From IMG/VR virus record IMGVR_UViG_3300021958_000049, positions 1 through 64,000 of that record: a stretch of 64,000 nt of DNA; one strand, 5' to 3'. Positions 19,680 through 58,389 of this stretch are shown here, piece by piece (positions within the stretch are counted from its first letter, which is position 1; the number at the start of each line of letters is the position of its first letter). Below the pieces are notes generated by a model. That model was not told the origin of the DNA. It ran no database searches and saw only the letters and a list, made by a program, of their open reading frames with translations. Source of the DNA: a virus. Lineage: Duplodnaviria > Caudoviricetes. The position numbers were made by a program, and so were the translations under genes.

Positions 19680-20738
19680 ATGGATACACAACTTACACAA
19701 GAGTTAAAAAATACAATCATTGGTCGAGTATCAAATGTTTTACAATCAGAATTTCATGGTGAAAAATCTAGATTAAAACAAGGATATGATCGATTAAATT
19801 TTGCATGTCCGTATTGTGGAGATTCAACCGAAAATCTTCGTAAAAAGCGAGGTAATATTTACTGGAAATCATTAATGTTTCATTGCTATAATTGTGATAA
19901 ACATACTTCTGTTATTTATTTACTTAAGGACTTTGAACAAGGTTTAAGTAAACATGAGGATGTATCAACTGTATTAGATTTTATATCAGAAAATCGAGTT
20001 GAAGTAAGTTCACAAGATTATTTACAAATTGGTGTTTTCGAAACTTTAGAAAAACATGCAATATCAAAAGAACAAATATTTAAAGCAAAGAAACTAACTA
20101 ATTTAACAAAAGGATCAGTCGGATATAAATTTGTTAAAGGAAGATTTTTATTACAACGTATAAATCATTTTGCTTGGTCAGATACAGATAATCAATTATA
20201 CATATTTAATCTAACAAAGGATGATAAAGTAATTGGATATCAAATAAGAAATTTTACTCCAGGTAGAACTAAATATGTTAGTTATACAATAGAAAAAATG
20301 TACAAAGAAATTCTAAACGAGGATTTAAAAATCCCTGGTATAGAAAAAGTAAATACATTATCTATATACTATAATATCATGACGGTAGATTTATCTAGAA
20401 ATTTTACAATATTTGAAGGACCTACTGATGCATTATTATATCCTAAAAATTCAATAGCATTAAGTGGTATTAACAAAAATTCAGATATGTTTGATGATAT
20501 AAACACAGCAAGATATTTTTTTGATAATGATTCTATTGGAAGAAAAACAATGGAACAAAAACTTAAAAGAAAGAAAACTGTATTCATGTGGAAAAAGTTT
20601 CTAAAAGAAAATAAGATAACTGTGCCAATTAAAGATTTTAACGATTTAATAAGACATTGTTATTTTGACAAAAATCCGGCATATAAAACATTGGATAAAT
20701 ACTTTACTACAAGTCCTTATGACATCATCAACATTTAA
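19680..20738 (+). CDS. gp61: DNA primase (gp61-like)
   Basis: Zn-binding FACPYCGDS...FHCYNC; TOPRIM IFEGPTDAL and FFDND; KDFND. Confidence 0.88.
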   Translation: MDTQLTQELKNTIIGRVSNVLQSEFHGEKSRLKQGYDRLNFACPYCGDSTENLRKKRGNIYWKSLMFHCYNCDKHTSVIYLLKDFEQGLSKHEDVSTVLDFISENRVEVSSQDYLQIGVFETLEKHAISKEQIFKAKKLTNLTKGSVGYKFVKGRFLLQRINHFAWSDTDNQLYIFNLTKDDKVIGYQIRNFTPGRTKYVSYTIEKMYKEILNEDLKIPGIEKVNTLSIYYNIMTVDLSRNFTIFEGPTDALLYPKNSIALSGINKNSDMFDDINTARYFFDNDSIGRKTMEQKLKRKKTVFMWKKFLKENKITVPIKDFNDLIRHCYFDKNPAYKTLDKYFTTSPYDIINI

Positions 20739-20961
20739 AAAATTCCAAGAGTTTGTGAACGAAGAGCTAGATAAATTTTACGAAGACGCAGAAGAAACAT
20801 CTAAAAATTACAAGATTCCTGTAAACTTTACGGATACTTCATCATATAACTATAATAATACTAATTCCATGTTTACCGAAGTTAAGAAAAAAGAAACTTT
20901 AATAAAGAAAAAGAAAACATGGAATAAGAATACAAAGAATAATAATAAAGATCTATTTTAA
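20665..20961 (+). CDS. Hypothetical protein (true start probably downstream, near 20719)
   Basis: Fills the gap between primase and UvsY. It ends in KDLF. An internal Met (MTSSTFKKF) avoids most of the overlap with primase. Confidence 0.45.
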   Translation: MTKIRHIKHWINTLLQVLMTSSTFKKFQEFVNEELDKFYEDAEETSKNYKIPVNFTDTSSYNYNNTNSMFTEVKKKETLIKKKKTWNKNTKNNNKDLF

Positions 20962-23457: not shown

Positions 23458-24300
23458 ATGGCACTAGTAAAATTTTCAAAATTTAAAAAGGAAAGAGCTA
23501 CAATTAAAGAAGCTAGAAATAAAGAGATGAAATCTAAAAAGTTTAATCAACTATTTAGTGAAACTCTTAAAGAACTAGGACTTAATTCAGTAGCAGATCT
23601 TTCAGAAGAACAAATGAATTCATTTTTATCAGCATTAAAAACTAAAAAGATTAATGAAGGTAGAGCAGAAGAAATCGAAGCACATACAATGGCTGCTGGA
23701 GAACCTCAACCTGCTGGAATGGCTGGAGAAATTAACCAGAAACATGGTTTTGATTCACCACAAGATCCTAATACTGCAGAGGATGCTAAAGCAGAAGATT
23801 TGAAAGCAGATGAAAATGATACGATCGAAGTTGAGGTTGTTGATGATAATGCTGAGGTAACCGAAAATGCTGAAACTGTTAACGAAGCTAAATTTAAAAA
23901 AGGACAATATATTAAAGCCAAACGCAATAGCGATGATTTTGATGGAGATGTTTATGATAAAACTAACGACGTTGATGGATCTGAAATCTTAAAAAACTCA
24001 TCATTCGAAATTTACAAAATTAGTAAAGATGAAGTTATTCTTTGGAGTGATGCTGATGAAGTAGAATACTCTATCGATCCAGATGATCTTAAGAATTTCG
24101 TAAAGGAATCAGTAGTTAATGAAGCAGAAATTAAATCAGATAAGGAATTTGAAGATTATGCAACAGACGTTTTAAAGAAATCTCATCCAGACGATTATGA
24201 TGAGGCCATTGCCAAAAAGGTAATAGATGGTCTTAAAGACAAATATAAGGATGATTATGGTGCTATGGTTGGTGCTTTAACATCAGGATTTGGAGGATAA
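23458..24300 (+). CDS. Putative head-packaged polyprotein with NE-delimited modules
   Basis: MALVKFSKF leader; junctions IKE|A, INE|G, TVNE|AK and ESVVNE|AE. Confidence 0.5.
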   Translation: MALVKFSKFKKERATIKEARNKEMKSKKFNQLFSETLKELGLNSVADLSEEQMNSFLSALKTKKINEGRAEEIEAHTMAAGEPQPAGMAGEINQKHGFDSPQDPNTAEDAKAEDLKADENDTIEVEVVDDNAEVTENAETVNEAKFKKGQYIKAKRNSDDFDGDVYDKTNDVDGSEILKNSSFEIYKISKDEVILWSDADEVEYSIDPDDLKNFVKESVVNEAEIKSDKEFEDYATDVLKKSHPDDYDEAIAKKVIDGLKDKYKDDYGAMVGALTSGFGG

Positions 24301-29467: not shown

Positions 29468-30085
29468 ATGTCTGAATCATTAAACGAAGGACGTCATCAA
29501 GTTAAAAGACGTTATGGTACACATGGAAGAATTCGTGTAAACGAAAACGGTGCTAAGGTAAGAGAAACTATAATTAAGTATATAGGAAAAAATTACGTTA
29601 CTGAAGAAGATTTACATAATCATTTAATTCGTTTAGAAGAAGATCGTGGAGGTGTTAAAGTTAATAAAGCAAAATGGTTTGCCAGAAATCAAAAACTATT
29701 CTCGACATTCGAAAAGAAAGGCAATCGTTATTATTCATTATCTAAGTATGGAATGAGAGTTTTAGAATTAATGAATAACAAAGTTGTTAAGAAAACTTTG
29801 AATGAGAGTAATTTTAAAAACATCCCGTCTTTATCAGAATGGATTTCAATAAACGAAGCTAATGTAAACGAGGCTAAGTTTAATAAAAAGTCTTTAATGA
29901 AAGCTATGAAAAAGGATGATGGTATGATTCAATTAGGTAACGGTCAAGAATATGTTATCTATGCATTTGGTAACGGAAACGATGATAACGATGATATGTG
30001 GGGAGATAAAACAATTTTTGCGCTAGATCAAGACGGTGGAGAGCACGAGATTAAATACTCTGATATCGTAAGCTATAAAGAATAA
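29468..30085 (+). CDS. Putative head-packaged polyprotein with NE-delimited modules
   Basis: LNE|G, LNE|S and INE|ANVNE|AK junctions, with GATATATA at 29441-29448. Confidence 0.5.
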   Translation: MSESLNEGRHQVKRRYGTHGRIRVNENGAKVRETIIKYIGKNYVTEEDLHNHLIRLEEDRGGVKVNKAKWFARNQKLFSTFEKKGNRYYSLSKYGMRVLELMNNKVVKKTLNESNFKNIPSLSEWISINEANVNEAKFNKKSLMKAMKKDDGMIQLGNGQEYVIYAFGNGNDDNDDMWGDKTIFALDQDGGEHEIKYSDIVSYKE

Positions 30086-44586: not shown

Positions 44587-45627
44587 ATGTCTCAACTTTA
44601 CGATTTAGAATTTAACAAAAGTGATGTAGTTCTACGTAATATATTAATAGGTGTACTCGCGACGCTTAATAATAAAATGTATTGGTATAATAGAATTAGC
44701 CAAACTGAGAAGAAGAAAATTAACATTCCTTTTTATTTTAGTACCACTGGAGATGAGCGATTCTTGATGGATACATTTATGAATACGGTCTCTGCTGGTG
44801 GAACTGATAAGTCTAAAGCTGAGGGTGTATATAATCAAATACCTAGAGGTATAGTGCAATTAGATAATGTTGCTATTGACGCAGGTTCTATGACTAATAA
44901 GTACGTCAGAGCATTTTATTCTAGAATTCAAGAAGATGGAACTTTACGAACTAAAAGTTCTGAGGTATTTATGGTACCTTTAAAAATGCCATTCACTGTA
45001 GATATTTACGTAAATACCAATTTAGATATATTTAAAGCTATTCAGAGAGCTATTGAAATATTCTACAAACATCAAGTATTTCAAGTTGATATTGACGGTA
45101 CTCGAATACCGGCAGTAGCTTCAATGCCTGAAGATTTTTCTAAAGAAAGACCTATTGAATATTCATTTGGTGATAAAAAGGAATGGAAGGTAACCTTTAA
45201 TATAGAAGTTCAAACATTCTTACCAATATTTAAAAATGCCGAAAATGGATTCCTTGGACCTAACAATACAGAATTCGATGCATCAAACGTAATGCAAGGA
45301 TTTGGTTCAAATATAAGATTTGCCGATCAAGGAGGTATTAGTAGTATTAGTCCATTCGCTGCAGATTTTGGTGCTAACGATAATGCATTCGGTCCTGGAA
45401 GTAATAACCAAACAGCATCTGGTGTATCTGGATTTGAAAATAATACAGATTCTAATACAGGATCTTTTGATAATAGTGTAACGGACAATGTTAATGGAAA
45501 CGGACCTAATCAATCAGGAAATCAAGTTGATCCTACAAACACAGATAATCGAGGTGGATATGGTCCTACATGGCCAGTAAGAAATCCAACACCATTGCCA
45601 AAAAATGGTGGAGCTACGTCTAGCTAA
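44587..45627 (+). CDS. gp15: gp15-like tail terminator / sheath stabiliser with a low-complexity C-terminal extension
   Basis: LRNILIGVLATLN...INIPFYF...ERFL...IPRG...VPLKM.F.V.I...DIFKAIQ pattern, with GATATATA at 44552-44559. Confidence 0.65.
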   Translation: MSQLYDLEFNKSDVVLRNILIGVLATLNNKMYWYNRISQTEKKKINIPFYFSTTGDERFLMDTFMNTVSAGGTDKSKAEGVYNQIPRGIVQLDNVAIDAGSMTNKYVRAFYSRIQEDGTLRTKSSEVFMVPLKMPFTVDIYVNTNLDIFKAIQRAIEIFYKHQVFQVDIDGTRIPAVASMPEDFSKERPIEYSFGDKKEWKVTFNIEVQTFLPIFKNAENGFLGPNNTEFDASNVMQGFGSNIRFADQGGISSISPFAADFGANDNAFGPGSNNQTASGVSGFENNTDSNTGSFDNSVTDNVNGNGPNQSGNQVDPTNTDNRGGYGPTWPVRNPTPLPKNGGATSS

Positions 45628-45675
45628 ATAACTTAATTATTAAAGATAAATATATAAACAAAATAAAATTATACA

Positions 45676-47676
45676 ATGAGCAAATTAAAGAATTTTGACG
45701 AATTTGTCAATGAAAATTTGGTTATCGGAGGAACATACAAACACTTCGGACCTGGATCATTAGATCCTATTATTCAAAAGCTTATAGGTGAAGGAAAGAA
45801 CGAATCTATTATTAGAACATACTTAACATCACTTGGTGTTGAATCTTGGAGAATAGATAAAGCAATGTCTAAATTTGGTGGAGTTGAATTTTCAGGTGAA
45901 AAGAATATGAACGAAGCTAAATCAAAGAAAACTTTCGAAGAAACTGCAAATAAATTTCTTTCTGATATTAATGAAGAAGACGAAGAATCTATCGATGAAG
46001 CATCTCGTTGGAAAGGAAAGGAAATATTTCCTAATTGGGTTAAACCAAATGAAATTTCAGGATTAATCAAAAAAGAAAAGGATTTAGAAAAAGGTTCTAT
46101 GTACGCTTTATTAGACTTAGGTTTAGATGTTTGGCAAGCGGAATATGAATACGAAGGAAAGGTTGGGCCTATACATATATTTAAATCAACTGCTCAAGGA
46201 ACTAGCGATGATTCTAATATAGAATTTACTGATAGTGAATTAAAATCTGCACTTAAGAATTTAGAAATTGCAGTAATGGAAGCTTATCAAATGGCTATGA
46301 ATGAAGCTAAAATTAATAAAAACGCTAAACGTTCAATAAGACCTCATAATAAAGTAAAACCAGGAATGGTTGCTATAGACTATAATGACGAACCTTACAC
46401 AGTTGTTGGAGTTGGTAAAGCTAGTGAATTACTTGATTTTGATGATAGTGGAATTGCTGCTGATGGAATGGATATGGATGAACCAGCAATCGCAACAATA
46501 GGAAGAGGTGGTTATGCTGTTTATTCTTATATGCCTGATGGTGCCGTTGTTTACGAATCAGAAGTTAATGAAGCTAAATTTGTAAAAGATTTTAATAAAG
46601 ATGTTTTAGATGCTACTACAGAAAAGGAAGTAAAGTCAATATATCCTAAAGCGGTATTCTTTATCGGAAAACATTCACACTTTTTTGGAGAACTTGAAGA
46701 TAACTTATTCTTTAAAGCATACTATATTAAAGGAAGGAGTGAATTTGAAATCAAATCAATTTATTCTCAGAAAGGAAGTAAATATGTTCATTTATATCTT
46801 AATGAATCAATGGTTAATGAAGCTAAAAAATACACAATAAAAGATATTATATCTGCTTACAAAGACGCTTTTGGTGAAGATATCACGAAAGGCGATAGAG
46901 TAGATATAATAGACGATATCAAATCTGATTACAAAGGTAAGATCACTATAGATGACTTAAAGGCTATTTATGACGATAGATATGGTGAGGAAATTGAAGC
47001 AGACTTTTTGGATGCATTAGGCGAATCTGTTAACGAAGCTAAAAAGAAAACTTTTGAAGATGCTGCCGCTGCATTTATTTTAGGTCTTGCTGGTAGCGAC
47101 CAAATCGACGAAATGTCAGAAAACAAAATGCCAACTAACGAGGAAGTAACAAAATGTATTGCAGATGGAATGACTTACGAACAAGTTTGTGAGAAATATC
47201 CCGATGCAGATAAAGCAAAGTTAAAAGAAATGTACGAATCGTGTGGTAAAAAACATGAGAGTGTATCAGAAAAACTTAATAAAGAATCTCTTCAAATTGA
47301 AGAAGGTGACGGTGAAGATATTGATGATATGATCGACGATCTTGCCGATGGTGATGAAGATGAATATCAAGGTGCTGATGATGAAGCTCCTAAAGATAAA
47401 GATTCTGATGATTCTGATGATTCTGAATCTGGTTTAGATAAAGCAGTTAAAGATGCTAAAAAAGATAAGAAAAAACTAGATAAAATTAAAGACATATTAA
47501 CAAGCGAAGCGGAAGAAGTTGAGCTTGATAAAGACGGAAAAGAAGAAAAAGATAAAGAAAACATCGAAGACGAAGAAAGTGGAGATGAGATCGAAATCGA
47601 AGAATCCGTTGATAAGGAAAGTGATGCATACATGGCTGCAGTACTTGAAGGTCTTAAAAAGAAATTCAACGGGTAA
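45676..47676 (+). CDS. Putative head-packaged polyprotein made of tandem NE|AK-delimited cassettes, 666 aa
   Basis: Leader MSKLKNFDEFVNE; five NE|AK junctions plus further xxE|A/S sites; acidic tail. Confidence 0.55.
   Translation: MSKLKNFDEFVNENLVIGGTYKHFGPGSLDPIIQKLIGEGKNESIIRTYLTSLGVESWRIDKAMSKFGGVEFSGEKNMNEAKSKKTFEETANKFLSDINEEDEESIDEASRWKGKEIFPNWVKPNEISGLIKKEKDLEKGSMYALLDLGLDVWQAEYEYEGKVGPIHIFKSTAQGTSDDSNIEFTDSELKSALKNLEIAVMEAYQMAMNEAKINKNAKRSIRPHNKVKPGMVAIDYNDEPYTVVGVGKASELLDFDDSGIAADGMDMDEPAIATIGRGGYAVYSYMPDGAVVYESEVNEAKFVKDFNKDVLDATTEKEVKSIYPKAVFFIGKHSHFFGELEDNLFFKAYYIKGRSEFEIKSIYSQKGSKYVHLYLNESMVNEAKKYTIKDIISAYKDAFGEDITKGDRVDIIDDIKSDYKGKITIDDLKAIYDDRYGEEIEADFLDALGESVNEAKKKTFEDAAAAFILGLAGSDQIDEMSENKMPTNEEVTKCIADGMTYEQVCEKYPDADKAKLKEMYESCGKKHESVSEKLNKESLQIEEGDGEDIDDMIDDLADGDEDEYQGADDEAPKDKDSDDSDDSESGLDKAVKDAKKDKKKLDKIKDILTSEAEEVELDKDGKEEKDKENIEDEESGDEIEIEESVDKESDAYMAAVLEGLKKKFNG
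45907..47043 (+). repeat. Dispersed 15-bp direct repeats (G/A)T(T/G)AA(T/C)GAAGCTAAA at cassette junctions
   Basis: Copies at 45907, 46297, 46564, 46813 and 47029. Related copies are at 23878, 24115 and 29864. Confidence 0.8.
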
Positions 47677-50851: not shown

Positions 50852-52441
50852 ATGGCAGGATTTGTAGAAAGAGGTGATAATGCAGGCGGACCTAGATTCG
50901 TTGCATCAAATGCCTTAAAACAGCTTAGTTCTTTTGGGATGAAATACGATGACATGGTTCTTCGTAACTCACAAGCCGTTGGTATTGTTGAAGATCAATT
51001 TGGATGGACTTATGACCCTAGAGGTTTAGTTGGAGGTGATTATGATGATTATGCATTATTTGCTAATTTAGCATTATCAGATATTGCTTTAAAGAAATCA
51101 ATATCAGTATTCGATAAATCATATCCTAAGAAACGTGAGGAACTTAGAAGATTTGCAGTACAAGATGAAATTGAAGAAATACTAGACACTCTTTGTGACG
51201 AATGTGTTGTTTATGATGACAAAAATTATTTTTGCGATCCCCTTTTATTCGATGACGATTTATTAGCTACTGAAAAGGTTGATGAAATTCGAGGAGCTAT
51301 TTCTGTTAATTTTAAAAGAATTTATCAATATTTTGGCTTTAATAACGATATCACCGCCTGGTCATATTTTAGAAAATGGCTAGTTGATGGTTACCTTGCG
51401 TTTGAGATAATATATGATAACGATCAAAGGAACGTTATAGGATTTAAAGAGATCGATCCAATAACGCTAGAACCAGGTATTGACGATCAAGGAAAAAGAG
51501 TATGGAAACAATTTAAAGATGTTCCTGGAAAAGCTCGAATGTTATACGATTCACAAGTTATATACATATCGTATGCTAACATGAATTCGCCAACTCGAAT
51601 ATCTTACGTTGAAAGACTTATTCGTTCATTTAATTTATTAAGAATCATGGAGCATTCTAGAATTATATGGGCAGTAGTTAACTCATCGTTTAAAACTAAA
51701 TTTATTATACCTGTTGGTGGTAAATCTAAAACAAGAGCAAAGCAATCTCTTGGTGTTTTAATGCAAAACTATAGAGAACAAGTTGATTTTGATTATGATA
51801 GTGGCGAATTAAAAACAAATGGTCGTCCGATGATGCCATTTAATAAAGAATATTGGTTACCTGAAGGAGATGCCGGTTCCCCACAAATTGAAACTATTGG
51901 TGGCGATGGACCTGATTTATCTGATACTGATTCCTTAAAATACTTTAAAGAAAATTTACGTAGGGTTTCTAAAATTCCTATGAATCGTTTTGATGTCGAA
52001 AATCCACCATCATGGGAAATCAATGCAGAGGGATTAACAAGAGATGAAATTAAATTCGGTAGATTTATTAATCGTTTGAGGTCAGTTTTCCAAGAAATTG
52101 TGGTAAAACCTCTTTGGATTCAAATGACTTTAGATTATCCTGACTTAATGAATGATGATTCTTTCAAATCTCAAGTCGGTGTTAAATTTAATAAGTATAA
52201 CGTATTTGAGGAAATGAAAGAAATGGAATTACTTCAAAAACGAATAGACTTTATTACTACCATGAAAGATGGATTAGTTGATTATGATCCAAATGGAAAT
52301 GAGATTAAATACTTCTCTTCTGAATTCTTGATTAGAAGATTCTTAGATTTAAGTGAAGATGATATTCGATCAAATGCGAAAATGAAAAAGAAGGAACAGG
52401 AAGAACTAGACGCAATGGCAGATGAAGAGGATAATATATAA
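50852..52441 (+). CDS. gp20: Portal protein
   Basis: FRKWLVDG, SYVERLIRSFNLLRIMEHSRIIW, EYWLP...GSPQIETIGG and SKIPMNRF. Confidence 0.93.
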   Translation: MAGFVERGDNAGGPRFVASNALKQLSSFGMKYDDMVLRNSQAVGIVEDQFGWTYDPRGLVGGDYDDYALFANLALSDIALKKSISVFDKSYPKKREELRRFAVQDEIEEILDTLCDECVVYDDKNYFCDPLLFDDDLLATEKVDEIRGAISVNFKRIYQYFGFNNDITAWSYFRKWLVDGYLAFEIIYDNDQRNVIGFKEIDPITLEPGIDDQGKRVWKQFKDVPGKARMLYDSQVIYISYANMNSPTRISYVERLIRSFNLLRIMEHSRIIWAVVNSSFKTKFIIPVGGKSKTRAKQSLGVLMQNYREQVDFDYDSGELKTNGRPMMPFNKEYWLPEGDAGSPQIETIGGDGPDLSDTDSLKYFKENLRRVSKIPMNRFDVENPPSWEINAEGLTRDEIKFGRFINRLRSVFQEIVVKPLWIQMTLDYPDLMNDDSFKSQVGVKFNKYNVFEEMKEMELLQKRIDFITTMKDGLVDYDPNGNEIKYFSSEFLIRRFLDLSEDDIRSNAKMKKKEQEELDAMADEEDNI

Positions 52442-52499: not shown

Positions 52500-54251
52500 A
52501 TGGATCAACCGAAATTATTGGTATTAGAGAGATCAACTTCGATTCTCGAAGCAAGTGCCGACGAAAAATATGTTTTGGAGGGAGTCTTTTCAGAGATTGG
52601 GAAAAAGAATAAGAACAATCGTATATATGATGAAAAGGAATTAATACCTCACATAGAAGCATTGCAAGAAAAAATTAAAACTGGAAAGTTATTAGGTGAA
52701 TTAGATCACCCAAAACAATTCGATATCTCATTAAAAAACGTATCACACGTAATAGAAGATATTACTTATGATAAAGCTAATAAAGTTGTTAAAGGTAAGA
52801 TTCGTTTGTTAGACACTGAATCTGGAAAACAAGCTAAAGCGCTTGTTGATGGTGGAATTCCTATTCATATTTCTAGTAGAGCTGCTGGTGTTGTTGAGAA
52901 CAACGGTCATGTTAAAATTAAAAAGCTTTTCACTTACGATTTAGTCGCTGATCCTGGATTCGAAAACGCAGAATTAAAACGAGTTAATGAAGCGTATGGA
53001 TTTGGTGAAGATGATAACGTACAAATATACGAATTAGAAGGATATATAGAAAATAACAATATAGAAATACAAAAAGAACTCGATACAATGGAAAATATCA
53101 AAGATACTACACCCATTAATGAAGGTCAAGGTAATTTCGTTTCAGTAGAAGATTTCAACGAATACTCTAAAATTATTAAAGAGCAATTCGAATCTTTAAA
53201 AGCCGATATTGGTAATGTTACAGAAAGCGACCAAACTCCGGATTTAATAAAATATACTGAAAGGGTTGCTAAACGAGTTAACGATCTATCTTCATATATG
53301 GAGAAAGTTAGCGAAAACGTTGATAATCTAATCTCACATAACGATTATATTATTGAGAACCTTGATAAGGTAAAAGATTATGCTGAATATGTTGGTCTTA
53401 AAACCGATCAAAATATTGAGTACTCAAAACATGTTGTTGAAGGAGTAAATAATAGATTTGCTTACCAAGATTACGTAAACGAAAACGTTGATAAAGTTAT
53501 TGACTATCAAAATTATTTAGTTGAAGGTATTGATGCGGCTGTTTCATATAGCGAATATATTAAAGAGAACGTTGAAAACTTAGGTAAATATACAGATTAT
53601 ATAGTTAAATCTTTAAACGAAACTAAAGAGGAAGTAGTAAAAACCGAAGAAACGGTAAATGAATCTACTGAATCTACTGAAACTGCTTCAGAAGAAACAG
53701 TTATTACAGAAAATGAAACTTACAAATTAGAATTAACAAATAAAATTCAAGCGTTAGTCGAATCCGCTAAGACGCAAAAAGTGGAAGAAACGTCTGCTAA
53801 CACCCACTTCTTAAATTTCTTAGATGAATCACGAAGAACTGAATTTAAAGCATTTGATGATGAGACTAAAACGAAAGTTATTAGAGCTTATGAGTCAGAT
53901 ACTTGGTTCGGATCAACGGATGCATCAGGTATTTGGGAGTCGGTATTCGCTGAGCCTGTTAAATCAATAGACTGGCTAGAAAATATGCCTGAGAAACATC
54001 AAAGTGCATGGGATTCTTTAAATGAATCACAACAAACTGCGATTAAAGCTCAAGCATCTGTGAGAAATCTCGATACACAGTATAAGATCGATCACTTCTG
54101 GGCAACTAGAGATTTACGTTCGCATAATCCATCTGAACAAATAAATGAAGGAATTTCTTTGAATGAGTCGAAAGACGATTCGAAATACGAAACTTCATCT
54201 GTTTACATGGAATCTGTTACAGAAGGACTTAAACGACGCTTTAACAAATAA
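52500..54251 (+). CDS. gp21: Prohead protease fused to scaffolding core (gp21 + gp22)
   Basis: KNKNNRIY, LLGELDHP, ISSRAAG and YDLVADPG in the N-terminal ~165 aa. The acidic coiled-coil C-terminus carries many xNE|S sites. Confidence 0.88.
   Translation: MDQPKLLVLERSTSILEASADEKYVLEGVFSEIGKKNKNNRIYDEKELIPHIEALQEKIKTGKLLGELDHPKQFDISLKNVSHVIEDITYDKANKVVKGKIRLLDTESGKQAKALVDGGIPIHISSRAAGVVENNGHVKIKKLFTYDLVADPGFENAELKRVNEAYGFGEDDNVQIYELEGYIENNNIEIQKELDTMENIKDTTPINEGQGNFVSVEDFNEYSKIIKEQFESLKADIGNVTESDQTPDLIKYTERVAKRVNDLSSYMEKVSENVDNLISHNDYIIENLDKVKDYAEYVGLKTDQNIEYSKHVVEGVNNRFAYQDYVNENVDKVIDYQNYLVEGIDAAVSYSEYIKENVENLGKYTDYIVKSLNETKEEVVKTEETVNESTESTETASEETVITENETYKLELTNKIQALVESAKTQKVEETSANTHFLNFLDESRRTEFKAFDDETKTKVIRAYESDTWFGSTDASGIWESVFAEPVKSIDWLENMPEKHQSAWDSLNESQQTAIKAQASVRNLDTQYKIDHFWATRDLRSHNPSEQINEGISLNESKDDSKYETSSVYMESVTEGLKRRFNK
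53247..53624 (+). repeat. Nine degenerate 14-aa repeats in the scaffold
   Basis: IKYTERVAKRVNDL / SSYMEKVSENVDNL / ISHNDYIIENLDKV / KDYAEYVGLKTDQN / IEYSKHVVEGVNNR / FAYQDYVNENVDKV / IDYQNYLVEGIDAA / VSYSEYIKENVENL / GKYTDYIVKSLNET. Confidence 0.8.
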
Positions 54252-54275: not shown

Positions 54276-55943
54276 ATGAACTTAATTAATGAATCTGAAA
54301 TTTTCGGAAAATGGGCTCCAATTATCGAGTCAACTACTGGAATCGAAGACAAAGGTAAATTAGGGTGGATGTCTAAATATTGCCATAACCACGAGTTGTA
54401 TGAGAATAATTCTTATGCACAAGTTGGATCTGTAAACGGTATGGGATCAGTAAGATTTCCTGGTAACCCAGGAGCTCAAACTGCTTTCGGTGCTCAAACT
54501 ACAGGATCTGGTGATAAGCCTTACACTCTTCTTCCGCTTGCAATGCAAGTTGCTGCACAAACTGTTGGATTAGACTTAGTACCAGTTGTTCCTATGAACG
54601 GACCAATGGGTATCTTAACTTATTTAGACTTTGTGTACGGTGGAGGTAAAGTACCTACTGTTGGACAAACTGGTGGATCAATCACAACTGCTGGAACAAC
54701 TCCAGACATGCCATTACTAATTAAAGTAGATGGTGCAATCACTGCTGCTGGTGGAACATTTACTGCTGCTCCTGTTGCCGGTGAACAAGTAGTATCAAAT
54801 ACTGGTGCTACATTTACTTTCGTAGGTGAATCTAGAATCGATGGATTTGACATCTTTAAAGTAGACGCATTAGCCGCTAGCCAAAACGTTGCTGCTGCAC
54901 TTGTTGCAGGTACAACATTAACATGGACTGCTGGTGGAACTGGTGTAATTACTACTTCAGGTTCTCCTGCTCTAGTAAAAGCACTAGAAGATCACGTAAT
55001 TGGTTTCTCTTCTAACAAATGGGATGGTTCTTCTGAGCCAATGTCAAGATTAGAAGGTGAAGGTACACAAGATAACGTAATGAACTTAAGCCTATTCAAC
55101 AAATCAGTTGAGGCTAAAACTTACCAAGTTGCTGCTGCAGTAACTCGTGAGCAAGTTCAAGATCTTAAGCAATTCGGTATCGATGCTGTTGCACAAGTTG
55201 AATCTGTACTTATCAATGAGTTAACTCAAGATATTAACAGAAACATCCTTGAAAGACTACGTAGACTTGGTTATACTAACCACGGTAATGTGTACAAAAC
55301 TCAAGGTGTTCAATTCAACTTATTAGTTGGAACTACTACTGGTAACACATACTCTGCAATTCCTGCTCTAGCTGCTTTAAATAGTGCTGGTTCTGATGGT
55401 GTAGCGGTATTTGGTGCTGCTGGTACTTACAATCCGGTAGTTGCATCTTCTGAAACTAACTCTGCTGCTGAGAATTTACATACTAGACAACGTAAAATCA
55501 TGTCTAAAATTCTTGCAACTGCGAACTTAATCGCAATCAGAGGTAGACGTGGACCTGCTACTTTCGCCGTTACAAACGGTCAAGTAGGATCTGCTTTACA
55601 AGATGTTGCTGGATTCGTTCCTGCTCCAATGGCAAATACGCTAAATCAACAAACTGGTTCATTGTACCCAATCGGTACTTTAGCTGGATTGGCTATTTAC
55701 GTAGATCCATACATGAGCTGGAGTGATACTCGAGTAACTGTAGGTAGAAAAGGTGATGGAAACTCTCCAGGACTTGTATTCATGCCATACTTAATGGCTG
55801 AATCAGTACAAACTATCGCTGAGGGAACAATGGCGCCAAAAATCGCTGTTAAATCTCGTTACGCTTTAGTTGAAGCTGGATTCCACCCAGAATCTATGTA
55901 CATCACATTCGGTGTAGCAAACGAAGCTGGTGGTTGGGCTTAA
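54276..55943 (+). CDS. gp23: Major capsid protein
   Basis: KWAPII, DLVPVVPMNGPMG, EQVQDLK, LINELTQDINR, GLVFMPY and KSRYAL. Confidence 0.95.
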   Translation: MNLINESEIFGKWAPIIESTTGIEDKGKLGWMSKYCHNHELYENNSYAQVGSVNGMGSVRFPGNPGAQTAFGAQTTGSGDKPYTLLPLAMQVAAQTVGLDLVPVVPMNGPMGILTYLDFVYGGGKVPTVGQTGGSITTAGTTPDMPLLIKVDGAITAAGGTFTAAPVAGEQVVSNTGATFTFVGESRIDGFDIFKVDALAASQNVAAALVAGTTLTWTAGGTGVITTSGSPALVKALEDHVIGFSSNKWDGSSEPMSRLEGEGTQDNVMNLSLFNKSVEAKTYQVAAAVTREQVQDLKQFGIDAVAQVESVLINELTQDINRNILERLRRLGYTNHGNVYKTQGVQFNLLVGTTTGNTYSAIPALAALNSAGSDGVAVFGAAGTYNPVVASSETNSAAENLHTRQRKIMSKILATANLIAIRGRRGPATFAVTNGQVGSALQDVAGFVPAPMANTLNQQTGSLYPIGTLAGLAIYVDPYMSWSDTRVTVGRKGDGNSPGLVFMPYLMAESVQTIAEGTMAPKIAVKSRYALVEAGFHPESMYITFGVANEAGGWA

Positions 55944-56040: not shown

Positions 56041-58389
56041 ATGAATCTAATAACAAGAGGCGAATACGATAGTATCAATGAAGCCGTTATAGGCTTAAGA
56101 AGATTAGCATCTAAGGAAGATTTAGAAGCGGTTAATGACCAGGAATTTAATGAAATGATTAAATTTTTGTTACTACTTAATAATCAAACTGGTGCTCGTT
56201 TATGTGAATCTCATTACACTCTAATAAAAGAATTGATGATAAAATCAGATTTGGTTAACGAATCTAGATTCGAATCAATGGATAGTATAGTTGCTATTAA
56301 TGAAAACTATATCAATGAAGATTGGGATGATGATGTTAGTAAAGGAATAACAACAGCGGCAGTAACAACTGGAGCGGCAGCAGTATCTTTAGCAGCATAC
56401 ATATCTTTCTTATTTAAAAAGAAGAAAATTAGAAAGGCTTGGGAAAAGGTTAGAGATAAAGAATTAGAAGCTGTTAATGTTGATAAGGATTTAGCCGATA
56501 CTATTAAGTCTTATGAACCTGAACTTTCGAAAGAAGAGGTTGCTGATAAAGTTTCTGAAATAGAAAAGAAGAAGGAAGAGGAGAAAACTGCATTAAAAGA
56601 TTTTGATGCTAATAAAAAAGAAGAGGTTGAGAAGACTGAAGATAAATTAAAAAAGACTGAGGATGTTATTAGAGATTTAGATTCGTCAGAGGCTGGTGGT
56701 GAGAAAAAGGAAGAGACCAAGCCAAAGGTAAAACCAAAATCTAAAACTGAGGTTCAGGAAGCTGAGGATACAACAACCGTTGATAAGACTAAAGGTAATA
56801 CTGATGAAGAGGAGGCCACTGGTAAAATACCTGATAAGAAAAAGGAAATTAAAGATATAAAAGATAATTCTGATATAGAGGGCGAATTAGAAAAGCTTCG
56901 AAAAGAAACCGCTAAAATAGAAGATGAAAATAAGAAGATTAAAGAAAAGGGTGGTAAAGACGCTACTAAGAAACTTGAAGCAAAATCTAAGGAAAAAAAG
57001 AAAATATCTGATAAAATAAAGGAAGTTGAAGAAGAAGGAACCCCTGAATTAAAAAAGGCCAAAGACGAATTAAAGGTTTTAAATAAAGATCTTGAAAAAG
57101 AAAAGTCAAATAGAGATAATCAAAAGGATACTATAAAATCTGCTAGAGACGAGGAGGCTATCAAAAAAGAAAAGGAAGATTTAAAATCTAATATAGAATC
57201 TGCTGAGACCGAGATTAAAGATATTAAAGAAAAGGGTAAGCCTCGTGGAACTGATAAAGAAAAGAAACAAGCAATTGATGATGCAACAAAACAAAAGGAA
57301 CAAATTGCGTTAGAGGTTGAAGCTGCCAAAAAGGAAGCTGATAGAATTAGTGGAACTAGTGGTGGTGGCGAAAAAGCTAAAGGTGTTGGTGGAAAAATAT
57401 TTGGATTTTCTTCAGGATACGTACAACAAATAAAGGGTGAACATGCAATCGAAGTGTTACAAGCTAAAAAGGATGCATTGACTACTAATGATACAATATC
57501 AGATAAAGATAAAGCTGCTCAAGAAAAGGCAATTGATGCACAAATAGCAAAAAGTAAAGAATCTATTAAAAATGGAGAAGAGACTTTAAAGAATGCAACC
57601 GACGGCGTTGATGCTTCTGATGAAGAAATTAAAACTGCAGAACAGGGAGTTAAGGATAAGGAATCCGAACAAGAGGCTGAAAAGACTAAAAAAGACGCCA
57701 AAGATAAGGCTAATAAAAAGGAAGCTATTGATGATGAAATAGAAAGACTTAATAAAAAAATTGAAGGAGCTAAAAAAGCTTTAGATGGCGGCAATATCCC
57801 TAAAGGAAAGGAAGAAATGGTAAAAGCTAACATCGATGCATTTAATGATAAGAAGGCAGAGCTACGCAAAATGAAAGATAAGTTAGGTGAGTCTACGTAT
57901 TACAAATTTAATTTAGCTTTATTAGAACGAGATATAGATGCATTATTAAATGAATATAACATTATAGTAGAAACTCGAAAAGAATTATTAGAAGAGGAAC
58001 CTAGCGATCCAAAAGATGATGAATCTGGCAGTGACAAATCGGATAAGAGTAATTCACTAGAAGGAAAAAAGGTTGTACTAGTTGATATGAGAATTAAAGA
58101 TCTTGGAGCGTTAGAAGGTGCTACTGGTGAAATAATTAAAGTGTTTAAAGAAAACGAACGTGAACCTGAAGGAGACTTACCAAGAAGAACAGGAGATCCA
58201 GAAATATTCAAAATTAAATTAGATAAACCAAAGGATCCTATGTATCCAGAAATCAATTTAACCAAAAAGAATTTTAAATTAAAGGAAGATAAGCCGGAAT
58301 CTAAAGAGGAAGGGACTAACGAGAATATTAACGAATCTTTTAGACAACGATTCTATAACGCATATAATGATACAAATAAAAAGATCTAA
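56041..58389 (+). CDS. Large K/E-rich protein with one transmembrane helix; putative head-packaged/ejection protein
   Basis: SINE|A and YINE|D sites; TM-like AAVTTGAAAVSLAAYISFLF followed by KKKK; long charged coiled coil. GAATATATA at 56008-56016. Confidence 0.45.
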   Translation: MNLITRGEYDSINEAVIGLRRLASKEDLEAVNDQEFNEMIKFLLLLNNQTGARLCESHYTLIKELMIKSDLVNESRFESMDSIVAINENYINEDWDDDVSKGITTAAVTTGAAAVSLAAYISFLFKKKKIRKAWEKVRDKELEAVNVDKDLADTIKSYEPELSKEEVADKVSEIEKKKEEEKTALKDFDANKKEEVEKTEDKLKKTEDVIRDLDSSEAGGEKKEETKPKVKPKSKTEVQEAEDTTTVDKTKGNTDEEEATGKIPDKKKEIKDIKDNSDIEGELEKLRKETAKIEDENKKIKEKGGKDATKKLEAKSKEKKKISDKIKEVEEEGTPELKKAKDELKVLNKDLEKEKSNRDNQKDTIKSARDEEAIKKEKEDLKSNIESAETEIKDIKEKGKPRGTDKEKKQAIDDATKQKEQIALEVEAAKKEADRISGTSGGGEKAKGVGGKIFGFSSGYVQQIKGEHAIEVLQAKKDALTTNDTISDKDKAAQEKAIDAQIAKSKESIKNGEETLKNATDGVDASDEEIKTAEQGVKDKESEQEAEKTKKDAKDKANKKEAIDDEIERLNKKIEGAKKALDGGNIPKGKEEMVKANIDAFNDKKAELRKMKDKLGESTYYKFNLALLERDIDALLNEYNIIVETRKELLEEEPSDPKDDESGSDKSDKSNSLEGKKVVLVDMRIKDLGALEGATGEIIKVFKENEREPEGDLPRRTGDPEIFKIKLDKPKDPMYPEINLTKKNFKLKEDKPESKEEGTNENINESFRQRFYNAYNDTNKKI

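Follow-up and report, generated by a model that had tools for sequence, protein, structure and literature searches.

A probable capsid-targeted carrier-cargo polyprotein with recombining modules in a large uncultured T4-like phage

The internal (Ip) proteins of phage T4 are anti-restriction cargo (PMC9026906, PMC3012670, PMC12373910), and these injected, hypervariable proteins inhibit GmrSD enzymes (PMC12373910, PMC3012670). T4 gp21 and its relatives cleave after a Glu that stands behind a short motif, and a capsid-targeting sequence (CTS) of 10 residues is enough for packaging (PMC9026906). In the giant phages phiKZ, 201phi2-1, and SPN3US, a gp21-related protease cuts many head-internal proteins behind Glu, often at multiple positions, and the capsid also contains ejection proteins (PMC9026906, PMC5694885, PMC10052503). 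For T4-type phages, PeSL modular shuffling has been described, in which short conserved sequences flank movable units (Arbiol et al. 2010, PMC2839356; PMC4122927); the end points of indels and replacements lie in these repeats, and the proposed agent is phage recombination that needs small patches of homology (PMC2839356, PMC4122927).

Here we describe a gene in a 64,000-nucleotide stretch of viral DNA (positions 1 to 64,000 of IMG/VR record IMGVR_UViG_3300021958_000049; hereafter, the window). The gene and its product share several traits with the T-even Ip1–Ip3 proteins (and Alt): an N-terminal leader ending in a hydrophobic-x-Glu site, a gp21-family (S77) protease encoded in the same genome, a highly variable content between close relatives, and a place as late genes near the head genes. 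The polyprotein is nevertheless set apart from the T4 internal proteins because its four putative cargo modules share one ORF and one leader; in T4, each Ip has its own gene and its own leader, whereas here one leader and a scaffold-like tail serve at least four unrelated in-frame modules. No sequence or fold similarity of these putative modules to any Ip was found. As in PeSL shuffling, each unit stands between short repeats, and it is in these that indels between close relatives have their end points. However, a PeSL is an intergenic cassette of promoter and stem-loop terminator that moves whole genes, whereas the repeat described here is coding, about 15–29 nt long, and located inside one frame, and, unlike a PeSL, it has to keep the reading frame and a peptide motif intact. 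The cuts in giant phages mostly trim propeptides from single proteins, and a chain of unrelated, freely exchanged modules is not described in the papers cited for them. Integrons likewise hold a variable, ordered array of exchangeable units between constant ends behind one upstream expression signal, but they use an integrase, attC sites, and separate ORFs, whereas the units here are protein modules in one frame, exchanged presumably by homologous recombination. Polyvalent proteins, which occur in phages and conjugative elements (Iyer et al. 2017), are reportedly multi-domain proteins of variable architecture, thought to be delivered to the recipient cell and sometimes processed to yield separate effectors; they are also said to be very large, to consist mainly of recognisable enzymatic domains, and to have peptidase domains of their own. 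In contrast, the modules of the present protein are 70–130 aa long and belong to no known family, and the presumed cutter is the prohead protease.

In our view, this gene of a large uncultured T4-like phage probably codes for a carrier-cargo polyprotein that is targeted to the capsid and cut in the prohead, and whose modules are exchanged by recombination. The proposed carrier would consist of a T4-style leader of 13 residues, a conserved helical N domain, two KTFE peptides of about 20–25 residues, and an acidic tail whose terminal helix is similar to the C-terminal end of the scaffold of this phage. Four putative cargo modules (102, 89, 83, and 72 aa), predicted to fold independently, lie between the KTFE peptides, and each part ends with hydrophobic-[N/T]-Glu, followed by Ala. 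The precursor may be built into the prohead core via its leader and scaffold-like tail, where the gp21-type (S77) protease would cut after each Glu and free the modules as separate small proteins. The freed modules would stay with the DNA and would probably be ejected into the host, where a role in anti-defence or takeover may be proposed for them on the model of T4 Ip1-3. The parts of the polyprotein and related genes of the window are listed in Table 1.

Table 1. Parts of the polyprotein encoded by ORF 45676-47676 and related genes in the window (a slash marks a protease-type site)
Feature	Position	Strand	Remark
Leader MSKLKNFDEFVNE/N, aa 1-13	45676..45714	+	like a capsid-targeting sequence; ends in a protease-type site
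Conserved helical N domain of the carrier, aa 14-80	45715..45915	+	ends NMNE/A; module cluster 1, 47 members
KTFE peptide 1 AKSKKTFEETANKFLSDINE/ and acidic spacer EDEESIDE/, aa 81-108	45916..45999	+	
Putative cargo module A, aa 109-210	46000..46305	+	ends AMNE/A; beta-rich core, then long helix (AF2)
Putative cargo module B, aa 211-299	46306..46572	+	ends SEVNE/A; small beta domain; cluster 14; AF2 pLDDT 73-85
Putative cargo module C83, aa 300-382	46573..46821	+	ends ESMVNE/A; widely shuffled alpha/beta module
Putative cargo module D72, aa 383-454	46822..47037	+	ends GESVNE/A; four helices, internal two-fold repeat
KTFE peptide 2 AKKKTFEDAAAAFILGLAGSDQIDE/, aa 455-479	47038..47112	+	
Small Cys-containing helical insert, aa 480-535	47113..47280	+	only in the closest relatives of the window (alignment)
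Acidic, mostly disordered tail with C-terminal helix ...AYMAAVLEGLKKKFNG, and stop codon	47281..47676	+	
Prohead protease (Peptidase_S77, gp21-type) fused to scaffold-like region	52500..54251	+	presumed processing enzyme
Second polyprotein gene	23458..24300	+	VNE/AK and ESVVNE/AE junctions; same module pool
Third polyprotein gene	29468..30085	+	6 sites against 0.13 expected

The polyprotein ORF is one uninterrupted frame of 666 aa, in which NE/A junctions occur after residues 80, 210, 299, 382, and 454 and all read [MV]NE/AK. A first-pass annotation of this DNA had reported junction-to-junction lengths of 130, 89, 83, and 72 aa and a GCT codon for the junction Ala at 45916, 46306, 46573, 46822, and 47038, and both sets of values were exact on recount. 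Five NEA triplets, the number found in the protein, were reached in none of 20000 composition-preserving shuffles, and protease-type sites numbered 8 against an expectation of 0.44 (p=2e-8). At the DNA level, in-frame direct repeats of 24–33 nt (repeats D1, D2, D3, and D7) were found at the junctions. The annotation had further proposed that a pair of KKTFE peptides opens and closes the array. Both peptides, NE/AKSKKTFEETANKFL and NE/AKKKTFEDAAAAFIL, are indeed present, and their likeness is beyond chance (local score 43, mean of shuffles 18.3; z=6.7; 0/2000 shuffles), corresponding to a 38-nt direct repeat with 76% identity (repeat D6). The repeat that it had noted inside the 72-aa module proved real but modest, the two halves aligning over about 30 residues (z=5.6; 1/2000 shuffles).

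The leader MSKLKNFDEFVNE/N, which we take to be a counterpart of the T4 CTS from its sequence pattern, is kept in 47/47 family members with F7, N12, and E13 nearly invariant, and similar leaders are present on other ORFs of the contig, e.g. FKKFQEFVNE/E in ORF 20719. The whole-protein AF2 model has the appearance of beads on a string, and its stretches with a pLDDT of <50 (residues 70-129, 195-218, 296-303, 367-383, and 453-483) each span a junction; the first of these linkers includes KTFE peptide 1 and the acidic spacer. Helices were predicted in the N domain at residues 30-38, 43-52, and 57-66 (pLDDT 75-80) and the Cys-containing insert reached a pLDDT of about 90 over residues 490-520, while C83 modelled alone gave a pLDDT of 87.9 with its last 4 residues disordered. 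The C-terminal helix of the tail, YMAAVLEGLKKKF, contains a motif matching the C-terminus VYMESVTEGLKRRFN of the protease-scaffold ORF over only the last ~15 residues; the likeness of the tail to the whole scaffold region was not significant (z=2.2).

The presumed processing enzyme was recognised by matches to PHROG 207 (E=1.4e-41) and PF03420 (E=2.2e-11; 44 bits, cut-off 27), and its scaffold-like region contains ten xNE/ or xTE/ sites (p=1e-11). Genes for a Gp23 capsid protein and a T4-type portal protein are also located inside the window, and the capsid protein starts with MNLINE/S. As a peptide pattern, the polyprotein junction fits the T4-type head-protease rule, hydrophobic-x-Glu. The density of the motif in the rest of the contig is 0.066 per 100 aa, a contrast that is partly circular because the high-count ORFs were preselected. 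Among the other two polyprotein genes of the window, the second has a middle module with 62% identity to the one that occupies the C83/D72 position in the orthologue P0013, and the C-terminal module of the third (AKFNKKSLMK...) is common to 42 other polyproteins.

Positional orthologues, found in the gene order sbcC, gp15-like gene, polyprotein gene, ..., portal, range from 349 aa (cargo-free) to 666 aa in phages whose portals are 92–98% identical. They share their ends, and the number of modules enclosed is 0, 2, 3, or 4, with the NE/A junctions as boundaries, in agreement with the expandable in-frame array that the first-pass annotation had envisaged. Collinear orthologues of invariant module content, which it had named as the finding that would speak against such an array, were not what we observed, as whole modules were present or absent exactly at junctions. 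D72, for example, occurs in L003/L004 but not in L001 and P0002-7, which are the closest relatives. In the wider set of relatives (n=207), we counted 144 architectures and 177 module clusters; single modules recur across many other polyproteins, and the same modules are found under many different leaders and tails. Module A (cluster 5, 32 members) also occurs in other carrier families (P0024, P0118, P0125, and P0140) and D72 in the P0250 family, once as a tandem pair, while a search of 1.84 billion proteins placed C83 in 69 representative clusters. C83 was found in at least 138 protein segments with varied neighbours on both sides, and in all of its ~60 distinct contexts ES-x-V-[TN]-E/ stands on either side. 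Of the homology breakpoints, 27% lay no more than 5 aa from a site, compared with 10% of random positions. Comparison of these loci shows related phages gaining, losing, and swapping whole modules at junctions.

How the modules are exchanged is suggested by silent-site divergence. Relative to L001, dS was 0.71 in C83, 0.58 in segment T1, and 0.43 in segment T2, as against 0.15–0.32 in the N domain, modules A and B, and segment T3. Relative to L003, it was 0.32 in D72 and 0.31 in T1, with flanks at 0.64–1.46. In the latter comparison, D72 and KTFE peptide 2 together showed 95% nucleotide identity, A, B, and T3 75–79%, and the N domain 86%. A Fisher test on mismatch density gave p=7e-7. The silent-site divergence marks an apparent homologous-recombination patch of ~540 bp that comprises C83, D72, and the second KKTFE peptide. 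In addition, the 216-bp indel that corresponds to D72 relative to L001 shows a 23-nt overlap of an imperfect direct repeat. The best reading of these patterns is that relatives exchange modules by ordinary homologous recombination. Such exchange would take place between co-infecting phages, with neighbouring shared modules or the 15-29-nt junction repeats as homology arms; selection would retain only in-frame products with junctions preserved, and site-specific insertion would play no part.

The junctions themselves could have a larger role. It is possible, if doubtful, that one DNA word for ES-x-V-[N/T]-E/A serves as both cut site and preferred crossover, is widespread in uncultured T4-like phages, and gives rise to a combinatorial domain-level cassette system. 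That the junction is a selected dual-use site, i.e. a protease site and an in-frame exchange hotspot, and the array a dedicated diversification device instead of a side effect of general recombination and selection, we regard as rather unlikely. The direct repeats at the junctions and the overlap at the D72 indel are in favour of this interpretation, as are the use of GCT for the Ala codon at 7/7 NEAK sites (background 0.41) and the identity of the upstream junction codons in 10/10 non-redundant C83 loci. Furthermore, few cleavage determinants are reported for gp21-type proteases (PMC9026906), and the conserved ES-x-V-[TN]-E/A stretch is longer than these; the new adjacencies B/D72, C83/D72, and C83/T1 require crossovers at a junction. 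However, the excess of silent-site conservation at junctions is weak, with a top-codon fraction in the wider family of 0.94 at junctions and a barely lower 0.89 in module interiors, and the compared loci are related. Moreover, the Asn codon is split between AAT and AAC within the gene, and the only event that could be reconstructed, the ~540-bp tract, ends inside homologous modules and not at junctions.

We also considered an uncleaved multi-domain scaffold or inner-core protein, in which NE/A would be a flexible linker and the modules would form one structural chain. The acidic tail and the C-terminal motif do resemble a scaffold, and no module has a known enzymatic or inhibitor fold. Against this, the linker fits hydrophobic-x-Glu and is concentrated in the scaffold region and in further candidate head ORFs, the phage having an S77 protease of its own; module content varies freely among near-identical phages, a poor fit to one cooperative structure; and the same modules appear under many leaders and tails. 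An uncleaved chain seems improbable.

It is even less probable that co-occurring strains were joined in metagenome assembly and that the five-part arrangement, with D72 directly after C83, is a chimera and not a real allele. Of 260 retrieved proteins, only the one from this contig has the exact C83-D72 adjacency, a degenerate DNA pattern of the C83/D72 junction was found in no other contig of the viral or metagenome collections, and the divergence of the patch differs from that of its flanks. Nevertheless, the patch shares only 92–95% identity with the nearest locus that bears D72, and its C83 shares 85% with L001, so that a donor with C83-D72-T1 would have to exist in any case. The shared junction words (15-23 nt, imperfect) are also short for assembler k-mers, and the general conclusion rests on the differences of L001, L003, L005, and L007, each from independent contigs.

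The KKTFE pair had originally been interpreted as a target-site duplication around an array following integron logic. Both KxTFE peptides are kept, directly in tandem, in the cargo-free alleles (L005, P0135, P0132, and P0030), and the two copies differ consistently from each other across the family; in L007/L008, cargo is located upstream of KTFE copy 1, outside the pair. Since the cargo-free alleles keep both copies, the pair is not a target-site duplication. As to integron logic as the mechanism, we found no tyrosine recombinase match (PF00589) on the 76.7-kb contig, which is ~23% complete (14/14 control genomes were positive), and none of 8 weak inverted pairs found in a search for attC-like repeats lay at a junction. 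The cassettes are not separate promoterless ORFs, and the silent-site divergence is that of a homologous-recombination tract instead. Integron-like, site-specific insertion of cassettes into a KKTFE target duplicated in the process is very improbable and contradicted by the cargo-free alleles, although the four modules of this allele do stand between two similar KKTFE peptides and the presence or absence of modules is precise at junctions.

For the preferred reading, a capsid-targeted polyprotein that is cut in the prohead, the cargo function of the modules is proposed purely by analogy because no module has a recognisable fold or family. Neither the whole protein nor C83 had a tblastn match among 50,697 phage records, and these modules are absent from the cultured phages of the phage collection. 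Pfam and PHROGs gave no match for the polyprotein, ESM Atlas gave no usable match, and Foldseek searches of the PDB with the C83 model or the whole model gave none at E<=0.001. In a wide VIA-align search with C83, the best Z was 4.7 (Ugi-2), and a BLIP-like protein (4.4), a CDI immunity protein (4.0), and Ugi (3.5) were also retrieved; the resemblance of the C83 model to small inhibitor-type alpha/beta proteins is only a lead and too weak to use.

The recent recognition of the three T4 internal proteins as specific GmrSD inhibitors places capsid cargo at the front line of the phage-host arms race. If the carrier-cargo reading is correct, many marine T4-like phages would hold a much larger and faster-changing cargo repertoire, in which one address tag and one protease rule suffice however many modules there are, and recombination adds or swaps modules without breaking expression, packaging, or release. 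The leader/junction/tail rule would then find hundreds of candidate injected effectors in metagenomes, and the polyprotein would provide a natural template for packing several proteins into phage capsids and would clearly exemplify cassette evolution at the level of domains within a single reading frame. Should the junction also prove to have the dual use considered above, these phages would re-assort a pool of well over 100 small injected proteins, probably for counter-defence, among few leader-and-tail carriers.

Finally, a candidate late-promoter word, GATATATA, was found 10 times against 8.9 expected, i.e. not above chance. The polyprotein gene has only a one-mismatch version of this word, at 45648-45655. 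All 10 exact copies are on the + strand, directly upstream of start codons.

Comparison of alleles, which the first-pass annotation had proposed for its supposed expandable array, revealed that orthologues of the target gene are not invariant: module content differs widely at syntenic loci with the gene order sbcC, gp15-like gene, target, 47736 ORF, three small ORFs and portal. The window allele (666 aa) comprises a leader, an N domain, the first KTFE peptide (k1), cargo modules A, B, C83 (83 aa) and D72 (72 aa), the second KTFE peptide (k2) and a tail. Among the related loci, L001 (595 aa; portal identity 98%) lacks D72; L003/L004 (600 aa; 97%) lack C83 and carry D72; the k1–k2 interval of L005 (349 aa; 96%) holds only a 25-residue Cys-rich insert; and L007/L008 (578 aa; 92%) carry three different modules upstream of k1. 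In the related protein P0013, the C83/D72 position is occupied by a module that the window's phage carries in gene 23458-24300. The insert separating the two KTFE peptides in the cargo-free L005 allele (L005:6301-6453, P0128) is CESCGKVHEGDCE, and the window allele has another Cys-containing helical insert after k2. In some orthologues (L003:7400-7803, L005, L007), the ...LEGLKKKF end gives way to a C-terminal extension (~70 residues) with a match to Pfam DUF3175 (PF11373; E=5.8e-08 in P0008).

The earlier description of the window allele itself held up. The gene is a single 666-aa frame with [MV]NE↓AK (arrow, putative prohead-protease cut point) after residues 80, 210, 299, 382 and 454, giving modules of 130, 89, 83 and 72 aa; every junction Ala codon is GCT, the pair of KKTFE peptides shows significant similarity (z=6.7), and an alignment of the 72-aa module's halves scores z=5.6. 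None of 20000 protein shuffles reached the observed five NEA triplets. AlphaFold2 modeled the whole protein as small confident domains on a string, with low-confidence stretches (70-129, 195-218, 296-303, 367-383 and 453-483) each covering a junction; C83 modeled by itself gave a pLDDT of 87.9, with its final four residues disordered. The N-terminus is MSKLKNFDEFVNE↓N, and several other contig ORFs have leaders resembling this head. The protein ends in AYMAAVLEGLKKKFN, a match to the C-terminus of the protease-scaffold ORF (VYMESVTEGLKRRFN), and this common motif may be a capsid-binding tag. The near-identical form in the two proteins is YM-x-x-V-x-EGLK-[KR]-[KR]-FN; a 782-aa ORF downstream ends in ...NINESFRQRF.

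Coordinates of features in the window
Feature	Position	Strand
ORF with targeting-like leader (80 aa)	20719-20961	
ORF with VNE↓AK/ESVVNE↓AE junctions	23458-24300	
ORF with VNE↓AK/ESVVNE↓AE junctions	29468-30085	
gp15-like tail sheath stabiliser	44587-45627	+
AATATATA	45648-45655	
Target gene	45676-47676	
Junction GCT codons	45916, 46306, 46573, 46822, 47038	
Cys-containing helical insert	47113-47280	
C-terminal motif, target	47629-47673	
T4-type portal	50852-52441	+
Peptidase_S77 (gp21-type) prohead protease, fused to scaffold-like region	52500-54251	+
C-terminal motif, protease-scaffold ORF	54207-54251	
Gp23-type capsid protein	54276-55943	+
782-aa ORF	56041-58389	
GATATATA, ten copies	9379, 17403, 22893, 27221, 29441, 35620, 44552, 47696, 52465, 53041	+

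The protease-type motif (hydrophobic-[N/T]-Glu plus a small residue) occurs at 0.066 per 100 aa in most contig proteins and is concentrated in a few ORFs, namely the target (8 sites, p=2e-8), the scaffold-like portion of the protease ORF (10 sites, p=1e-11), ORF 29468-30085 (6 sites) and ORF 23458-24300 (4 sites), a contrast that is partly circular because high-count ORFs were excluded from the background. The latter two ORFs are built like the target, and modules of theirs recur in dozens of polyproteins from other phages. The capsid protein begins MNLINE↓S and the next ORF ...SINE↓A. The leader of the 80-aa ORF, FKKFQEFVNE↓E, bears a striking likeness to the T4 capsid targeting sequence, and this ORF may encode an internal protein with a single module. 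Both T4 gp21 and related giant-phage proteases cleave after a Glu preceded by a short motif, and a 10-residue N-terminal targeting sequence suffices for protein loading into T4 heads (PMC9026906). From the motifs and the structural model, we infer that the target protein is a precursor, putatively cut in the prohead.

Synonymous divergence (dS) from L001 and L003, respectively, was 0.30 and 0.64 in the N domain, 0.32 and 1.46 in A, and 0.15 and 0.69 in B. C83 (absent in L003) gave 0.71 against L001, and D72 (absent in L001) 0.32 against L003. In T1, T2 and T3, the successive parts 3' of D72, the values were 0.58 and 0.31, 0.43 (L003 not comparable), and 0.19 and 1.34. Mismatch density was 0.149 in C83 versus 0.053 in the remaining parts (Fisher p=7e-7). 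Since patchy dS and mismatch density agree, a ~540-bp tract (about 46600-47145; C83, D72 and k2) has a history unlike the rest of the gene, a pattern characteristic of homologous recombination with a diverged relative. New adjacencies such as B–D72 or C83–k2 would still require crossovers at the junction words, which are direct repeats of 24-33 nt with 71-83% identity. The window and L001 are 92.5% identical in nucleotide sequence; their sole large indel is the 216-bp D72 segment, whose flanking alignments overlap in a 23-nt imperfect direct repeat, GAATC..GTTAAYGAAGCWAAA. The junction DNA may be conserved beyond the needs of its peptide: the NEAK-site Ala codon is GCT in 7/7 cases (background 0.41), but codon uniformity in the wider family is only slightly higher at junctions (0.94) than in module interiors (0.89). 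Small homology patches suffice for recombination in T4-type phages, and the closest known mechanism is their PeSL system, in which whole genes are shuffled between short conserved cassettes (PMC2839356).

The exact C83–D72 adjacency was found in the window's contig only, so an assembly join, though improbable, may underlie it; the main conclusions draw on how other loci, each assembled independently, differ from one another. The proposed integron analogy found no support, as the 76.7-kb contig (~23% complete) encodes no tyrosine recombinase and the junctions lack attC-like inverted repeats. Nor do the KKTFE peptides behave as a target-site duplication bracketing the cargo: cargo-free alleles retain both in direct tandem, copy 1 (TFEExAxKFLxxLNE↓E) differs consistently from copy 2 (TFEDAAAAFLLGLxGSD) family-wide, and L007 cargo sits outside the pair, which is better seen as a fixed carrier part.

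Module shuffling extended to the wider family, in which 207 retrieved relatives displayed 144 architectures from 177 module clusters. C83 was represented by 138 segments whose leaders and tails are diverse, and in ~60 distinct contexts ES-x-V-[TN]-E↓ borders it on either side; in a 1.84-billion-protein library, it occurred in 69 representative clusters, located from the N-terminus to residue 600. Of the internal pairwise-homology ends, 27% lay no more than 5 aa from a site, versus 10% for random positions. D72 relatives are present in another family, once as a tandem pair: P0250, from a polyprotein family with Pfam PF11450, has two paralogous D72-type modules with ESAVTE↓A between them, the outcome expected if unequal crossing-over occurred at junction repeats.

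No module matched a known family or fold in Pfam, PHROGs, Foldseek, VIA-align or the ESM Atlas. C83 is strongly conserved (60-76% identity) across unrelated carriers, which argues for selection on a function of its own. The T4 internal proteins Ip1-3 are injected and hypervariable, each with one GmrSD variant as its specific target (PMC12373910, PMC3012670); by analogy, the cargo modules are probably ejected effectors.

All long ORFs in the window lie on the + strand (GC ~31%), and its T4-type genes include an SbcCD-like nuclease and a DnaB-like helicase. The capsid protein has its nearest relatives in LR756500.1, an uncultured phage of 462 kb (55%), and in Prevotella Lak megaphages (~39-42%). 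Because CheckV puts the 76.7-kb source contig at ~23% completeness, the phage may be very large. The word GATATATA is probably a late-promoter word: although its total count in the window shows no excess over chance, all ten copies are on the + strand and precede start codons by a few tens of bases. As its counterpart, the target gene has only AATATATA.
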